In this document: positions 14,290 to 14,776 of the stretch, piece by piece | Position numbering within the stretch: position 1 is the stretch's first letter | How the letters are laid out: each line of letters opens with the position of its first letter | Assembly: GCF_001952655.1 (NCBI RefSeq) | Contig: NW_018128011.1 | Location: 1,079,772-1,099,452 of the forward strand | DNA from: Monopterus albus | Taxonomy: Eukaryota | Direction of reading: 5' to 3' | DNA length: 19,681 bases | Program-made: the position numbers and the translations under genes | The notes under the pieces: model-generated | What the model was told of the DNA's origin: nothing | The model's database searches: none | Seen by the model: the letters and a program-made list of their open reading frames with translations, nothing else

Positions 14290-14566
14290 CACATCCTCCC
14301 TCTCTAACTTTGCTAACCCATTATACCCATACTCTCTTCTTCTTTTTCTTTCCTTTGAATTAAAACCCACCATCCCCTTATATCCCTATCCCTTCAATAT
14401 TACACCATCAAACCTTTACCTCTTCCTCCATCCTTTTCATTTTACTCAGTGCTTCTTTCCAGTCTCCCCTCCTCCTCTTCCTTCCCGTCCTCCACCACTC
14501 CAGTGCATCACCATGTTAACCCTTGTCTCCGTCATCCTCCTTTCTTGTCCCCGTTCTCTCTGCCAG
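14290..14566 (+). promoter_or_regulatory. About 280-nt polypyrimidine (C/T) tract ending at the exon 9 NAGNAG acceptor
   Basis: tcctccctctctaac...ctcttcttctttttctttcc...cttcctccatcc...ctcccctcctcctcttccttcccgtcctccaccactcc...cgttctctctgccag. Very few purines on the + strand. Confidence 0.5.
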
Positions 14567-14776
14567 CAGGAGTACGAGGAAGAGGGCGACGAGGAGGAGG
14601 AGAGGACCAAGCGCTCTCGGAAGGACGGCATGCTCCGTCGCCCCGGAGACCGTTGGATGCTGCGGGGTCCCATTGAGTACGTCCCCCCTGCTACCGTGGA
14701 CGTGGTGCTTAGACGAGAGGCCATCCCGCTGGATGAAAATGAGGGCATCTATGTCAGGGACATCAAAACTGGAAAG
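14567..14776 (+). CDS. mvp: mvp exon: (Q)[75 protein letters not shown] acceptor: the exon starts at 14567 (ccag|CAG) or 14570 (cagcag|GAG).
   Basis: Tandem acceptor tgcCAGCAG|gag. Donor GGAAAG|gtgttgg (GT 14777-14778). Matches human ...HWLIRGPLEYVP...[19 protein letters not shown]. Confidence 0.88.

Follow-up and report, generated by a model that had tools for sequence, protein, structure and literature searches.

The eighth coding exon of the major vault protein (MVP) gene, mvp, opens at a CAGCAG motif, which probably works as an ordinary NAGNAG (YAGYAG) 3′ splice site with a major proximal and a minor distal acceptor, the choice between them being stochastic and neutral. In the whole stretch of Monopterus albus DNA that was analyzed (19,681 nt, referred to as the window), positions 14561-14572 read TGCCAGCAGGAG, as the original prediction had it, with CAGCAG at 14564-14569; the 3′ end of the intron 13218-14566 is ...tctctctgcCAG CAG/GAG (here and below, a slash follows the last CAG). 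Use of the first AG starts the exon at 14567, and use of the second AG starts it at 14570. The upstream exon closes with the codons GAC ATA GAC GAG and runs into gtgagg, a good donor in phase 0, so that both AGs are indeed in frame with ...NDIDE, as had been claimed. Translation of the two joins, 13217 to 14567 (...AFNDIDEQEYEEEG) and 13217 to 14570 (...AFNDIDEEYEEEG), yielded the two foreseen peptides, ...DIDEQEYEEEG and ...DIDEEYEEEG, respectively, both of them open and free of stops.

The site therefore has the sequence of a NAGNAG, that is, a genuine intron 3′ end with a second NAG directly after it (ctgcCAG CAG/GAG), and it belongs to the plausible HAGHAG / YAGYAG subclass, as both N are C (criteria of PMC1669710 and PMC3250501). 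CAGCAG is the most favourable NAGNAG type. Furthermore, the GAG at 14570-14572 turns the site into a triple, CAGCAGGAG. The features of the site and of its fish orthologs are collected in Table 1.

Table 1. Features around the tandem acceptor of mvp (positions in the window) and the corresponding acceptors of other fishes. A slash follows the last CAG.
Feature	Position	Strand	Description
Upstream coding exon (seventh coding; exon 8 of the original prediction)	13092-13217	+	Ends ...AFNDIDE, phase 0, donor gtgagg
Intron	13218-14566	+	1349 nt with the proximal AG; gene model
Conserved intronic element caCCATGTTAACCCT	14509-14523	+	Aligns across teleost loci; contains the branch-site pentamer TTAAC
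Polypyrimidine tract, CT-rich	14520-14563	+	44 nt, 86% pyrimidine; the -4 base (14563) is C
Proximal CAG acceptor	14564-14566	+	Conserved, putatively ancestral intron end; aligned CAG present in 10 of the 11 fish species
Distal CAG	14567-14569	+	Gln codon opening the exon, or, with splicing at its AG, the final 3 nt of the intron
GAG, third in-frame AG	14570-14572	+	Weak acceptor type, least preferred in the order CAG>TAG>AAG>GAG (PMC2699507)
Coding exon 8 (exon 9 of the original prediction)	14567-14776	+	Encodes the peptide ending ...IKTGK
Acidic-then-basic loop part of the exon	14567-14644	+	26 aa; length-variable among fishes, mostly absent from mammalian MVP, low model confidence
Group A: window, L002			tgcCAG CAG/GAG
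Group A: L013			tgcCAG/CAC CTG
Group A: L001 (SRR33329662, Barathrites iris, Ophidiiformes; species from PMC12418789)			tgcCAG/CGT GAG
Group A: L012			tgcCAG CTG CAG/GAC
Group A: L014			tgcCGC TTT CAG/GAC
Group A: L011			tgtCAG TCC CAG/GAT
Group B: L003, L004, L008			CAG/CAA
Group C: L005, L006/L007, L009/L010			CAG CAG/GA

Gene model and intron 3′ end

The identification of the gene as mvp held up well: the 191-aa peptide of exons 7-9 matched the major vault proteins in PDB (E = 6e-73), and homology extends along the whole length of the protein (vault repeat domains, shoulder, and cap helix). The exons were aligned one by one, starting at the ATG (7197) and continuing through to the end of the window, using tblastn, with a human MVP query serving as a guide only. 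With all borders set on GT-AG sites, this alignment resulted in 15 coding exons on the + strand and an uninterrupted 789-aa ORF. Pfam Vault domains are present in fish homologs. Exon 14567-14776 is the eighth coding exon, and its number 9 in the original prediction presupposes an additional, non-coding first exon. Upstream of mvp and on the same strand, the end of an ORF at 284-493 (+) matches the Pfam Caskin-tail family (PF16632, E = 4.5e-19) and would appear to form the final coding exon of a caskin gene. No tandem repeats were found in the window.

Coding homology starts at the aligned CAG in the loci examined, except for one (L014) in which it starts 6 nt downstream, and this fixes the position of the acceptor. 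A true acceptor elsewhere was considered and rejected: the nearest upstream AG lies 63 nt away, and its use would add a 21-residue hydrophobic stretch without counterpart in homologs. The same CAGCAG was found in an independent read set, in which Logan contig L002 matches the window with 11 mismatches over 1667 nt (99.3% identity) and appears to come from the same species or a very close one; therefore, the motif is not an assembly error. As for the other acceptors of the gene, a NAGNAG at the preceding one (13086-13091), suggested by an in-frame Q in the ORF listing, was discarded, as the site reads tgaCAG/GGT with a single AG. The acceptor of the 15th coding exon (19592-19597, exon border at 19595) reads CAG/GAG and is formally a NAGNAG, although an implausible tandem with a weak distal GAG.

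No AG occurs between 14503 and 14565, which leaves a 63-nt AG exclusion zone at the intron 3′ end. The conserved element CCATGTTAACCCT (14509-14523) is probably the branch site; within its TTAAC (14516-14520), the candidate branch A is base 14519, with the proximal AG 47 nt downstream. The branch-site consensus is yUnAy. This element aligns across distant teleost groups no matter whether the tandem is present or absent, and the final ~70 nt of the intron likewise align across teleost clades.

Orthologous acceptors and the encoded loop

The last ~290 nt of the intron (14279-14566) are open in the reading frame of the exon because the sequence is so pyrimidine-rich, and prokaryote-style gene callers therefore yield ORFs running from the intron into the exon. 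It was this artefact that made the orthologous fish acceptors retrievable. The orthologs are ORFs on fish genomic contigs from a protein collection, and the DNA was taken for twelve of them, giving 11 distinct species including that of the window. Based on the similarity of the conserved exon part and the intron end, these species fall into three groups (A, B, and C). In the five orthologs that have the upstream exon on the contig (L003, L005, L006, L011, and L014), this exon is in phase 0 before GT.

A comparison with other teleosts had been proposed along with the original prediction, and it favoured one of the two AGs only. Ten of the 11 species keep a CAG where the proximal one aligns (window/L002, L013, L001, L012, L011, L003, L004, L008, L005, L006/7, and L009/10), whereas the second CAG is kept in only four, namely, the window species and the three group C species sampled (L005, L006/7, and L009/10). 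CAGCAG is absent from L013, L001, L012, L014, L011, L003, L004, and L008, and within the sampled group A it is limited to the window species. Thus, the tandem lacks the conservation expected of a regulated NAGNAG. Taken together, these alignments suggest that the proximal CAG is the ancestral exon boundary and canonical acceptor, while the distal AG appears to be labile, having been gained and lost in evolution.

In three related fishes of group B, the first Gln of the exon is encoded by CAA (L003, 2480-2485; L004, 1406-1411; L008, 689-694). Here, the proximal AG is the sole usable one and the exon opens with CAA, and so the proximal AG is used and the Gln is translated. Together with the conservation of the proximal CAG, this points to the Q-containing MVP as the canonical and genuine form, which is probably also the ancestral one. 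In the other mvp exons of the group B fishes, Gln is written CAG or CAA at a ratio of ~16:1, and the CAA at the exon start is thus a weak hint of tandem-acceptor avoidance, carrying little weight as a single shared event.

Several other variants were seen at this boundary. In L014 (1896-1912), CGC stands in place of the proximal CAG, so that the sole AG is the one 6 nt downstream (tgcCGCTTTCAG/GAC). Two CAGs stand 6 nt apart in L012 (CAGCTGCAG) and L011 (CAGTCCCAG). In total, a tandem with its AGs 3 or 6 nt apart is present in six of the 11 sampled species and a shifted boundary in one, while the residue at the first exon position is Q, H, R, L, or S depending on the fish. From the alignment, the exon boundary appears to have moved by 6 nt between L014 and the other fishes. 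Across the 11 species, point mutations would create and destroy tandem acceptors and thereby cause turnover of the boundary, as seen in CAG, CAA, CAC, or CGT at +1 to +3, the 6-nt tandems, and the 6-nt shift.

The insertion or deletion of Gln sits at the start of the acidic-then-basic stretch of the exon. The acidic loop had been claimed to be longer in this fish than in mammalian MVP, and a HMMER alignment with solved mammalian MVPs agreed, as 18 residues have no mammalian counterpart; overall, the fish 191-aa segment is 15 residues longer. Among fishes, 20 to 33 residues precede RRPGDRW, and their composition differs too. In the fishes examined, the acidic run is followed by a basic cluster (14606-14644 in the window; KRSRRSG or KKRG in other fishes), which is missing from the aligned mammalian MVPs. 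The 191-residue segment was modelled with AlphaFold2 (28-sequence alignment, mean pLDDT 73), and loop residues 41-60 have a pLDDT of ~58, compared with 84-89 for the flanking strands. Proteins tolerate tandem sites where their structure is disordered or exposed at the surface (PMC2279118). Given such a surface, poorly ordered, tandem-tolerant location in the model, a functional difference between the MVP isoforms with and without the Gln is unlikely, and one Gln in this disordered, length-variable loop is unlikely to alter vault assembly.

Expected use of the two acceptors

Spliced fish mvp was not found in the protein database with the 191-aa junction-spanning query or the 70-aa exon query, which retrieved only ORFs on unspliced genomic fish contigs. 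A literature search returned no paper linking NAGNAG to major vault protein and nothing relevant on splice variants of this protein in teleosts. The use of the site can be predicted from what is known of its class. In human, mouse, and fly, 50-85% of YAGYAG acceptors are alternatively spliced (PMC3250501). The two Ns are the main determinants, with the preference CAG>TAG>AAG>GAG, and a human-trained classifier performs equally on zebrafish, showing that the determinants are conserved (PMC2699507). There is a general proximal preference of ~1 bit; a pyrimidine at -4 and a CT-rich tract favour distal use, and a shorter branch-point distance moves splicing toward the distal site (PMC3250501). In terms of these studies (PMC3250501, PMC2699507), the mvp site has features of both kinds: C at both -3 positions, the pyrimidine (C) at -4, the CT-rich tract, and the G after the distal AG favour the distal acceptor, and the general bias and the long distance from the candidate branch point (47 nt) favour the proximal one.

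Given the rates for YAGYAG acceptors and the conservation of the determinants down to zebrafish, a minor Q-less isoform is likely to be made. By this analogy, it is fairly probable that both isoforms reach at least 5%, with the Q-containing one as the major form. Because the proximal AG is conserved and the distal AG is present in four of the 11 species, any Q-less isoform would most likely be a minor, unselected by-product and not a conserved regulated switch.

The following mechanism would fit these data. Downstream of a long CT-rich tract, the spliceosome finds a pair of CAG acceptors that share the same frame and are separated by 3 nt. The proximal CAG (intron end at 14566), as the presumably ancestral acceptor, would give the canonical product ...DIDEQEYEEEG.... 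The distal CAG, which has the favoured C at -3, a consensus G at exon +1, and the pyrimidine at -4 of the tandem, would compete with it in the second catalytic step, leaving a minority to a comparable fraction of the mRNAs without the CAG (...DIDEEYEEEG...). The choice would be a stochastic competition governed by site strength, without a dedicated regulator, in line with the stochastic affinity model of tandem-acceptor choice (PMC1449888). The outcome would be a single-Gln length change in a flexible, length-variable acidic loop of the MVP repeat domain, which is probably neutral.

Three observations speak against parts of this explanation. The 47-nt branch distance and the 63-nt AG exclusion zone favour the proximal site and could keep the distal form below 5%. 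The presence of the tandem in all three sampled group C species could reflect selection rather than neutrality. The otherwise rare CAA of group B hints at cases in which the tandem is not neutral.

The first of these observations also fits a different reading, in which splicing at the proximal AG is constitutive and the second CAG is simply a Gln codon, without an appreciable Q-less isoform. We consider this a real possibility, albeit a clearly lesser one. The proximal CAG is the conserved site, it has the general proximal preference on its side, and 15-50% of YAGYAGs are not detectably alternative (PMC3250501). Moreover, the mvp gene in the window encodes Gln with 38 CAG and 2 CAA codons; with 95% of Q as CAG, a Q at the exon start makes the tandem motif automatically. 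CAG accounts for 4.8% of the codons, and YAG occurs at 3.3% of positions in any frame, which predicts about 0.5-0.7 acceptors with a YAG behind them among the 14; one was observed, i.e., the occurrence of tandems in this gene is no more than chance. Constitutive proximal splicing is harder to reconcile with the base composition of the site, including C at both -3 positions, the pyrimidine at -4, the consensus G after the distal AG, and the CT-rich tract beside the AG, a feature associated with distal use.

It is improbable that the tandem is a selected, tissue-regulated switch between two functionally different MVP isoforms. In mammals, tissue regulation affects at least 25% of alternative NAGNAGs, and regulated NAGNAGs tend toward conserved upstream intron sequence (PMC3250501), which is matched here by the ~70 nt of intron end aligning across teleost clades; CAGCAG is also common to the window species and each of the three group C species sampled. 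However, the tandem is absent in seven of the 11 species, including all the sampled ones with the most window-like intron 3′ ends (L013, L001, L012, and L014), and the intronic conservation is equal in species without it. In addition, the residue varies freely, the loop is length-variable and poorly ordered, and the tables of alternative NAGNAGs for human and mouse in PMC3250501 do not list MVP. [quoted passage not shown] Finally, the distal AG (14569) is very unlikely to be the main acceptor, with the Q-less protein as the principal product in the window species: the -4 pyrimidine, the CT-rich tract, and the G at exon +1 suit it, and the boundary of L014, moved to a downstream CAG, illustrates that downstream sites can take over, but the proximal bias of ~1 bit, the long distance from the likely branch point, and the proximal position used by the single-AG orthologs all argue against it.

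Comparison with known tandem acceptors

With the ordinary NAGNAG as the preferred explanation, the mvp site matters little alone, as NAGNAGs number in the thousands per vertebrate genome; it is an unconfirmed addition to a very well-known class of acceptors, and the boundary variants of fishes are its mildly interesting by-product. For annotation, the exon start at 14567 (Q-containing) should serve as the reference model, with 14570 as the expected minor variant. The fish mvp series is a natural illustration of how the gain and loss of tandem acceptors move exon boundaries, and this boundary turnover may help to explain the length variation of the MVP loop among fishes.

Like the vertebrate NAGNAGs described previously (Hiller et al.; TassDB, PMC1669710; Bradley et al. 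2012, PMC3250501), the mvp site has two AGs 3 nt apart with a pyrimidine at both -3 positions, is in frame, and causes a one-residue (Gln) insertion or deletion at the exon start in a non-structured polar region. Unlike the confirmed NAGNAGs, it is a candidate from sequence; of the 11,234 zebrafish NAGNAGs in TassDB, only 3.3% are EST-confirmed (PMC1669710). The NAGNAG of a PTBP2 exon, which inserts or deletes an Arg in RRM4, is a model of a conserved regulated NAGNAG (PMC3250501). Like it, the mvp site is of the YAGYAG type, has a pyrimidine at -4, and is preceded by conserved intron sequence. However, the PTBP2 tandem is kept from human to lizard and alters an RNA-contacting residue (PMC3250501), whereas the mvp tandem occurs in four of the 11 fishes and affects a variable loop.

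Further parallels are found in boundary evolution. Exons often gain or lose sequence at their 3′ splice sites through point mutations that make, change, or remove tandem acceptors, with TRIM28 as an example (Bradley et al., PMC3250501), and species-specific wobble splicing of insect synaptotagmin I is tied to synonymous changes (PMC2668829). Unlike these cases, the mvp pattern is deduced from genomic sequence. As in TRIM28 and synaptotagmin I, point changes in fish mvp make or break the second AG, accompanied by the 6-nt tandems of L012 and L011 and the 6-nt shift of L014. Overall, the boundary variants of fish mvp appear to match the model of Bradley et al. (PMC3250501).
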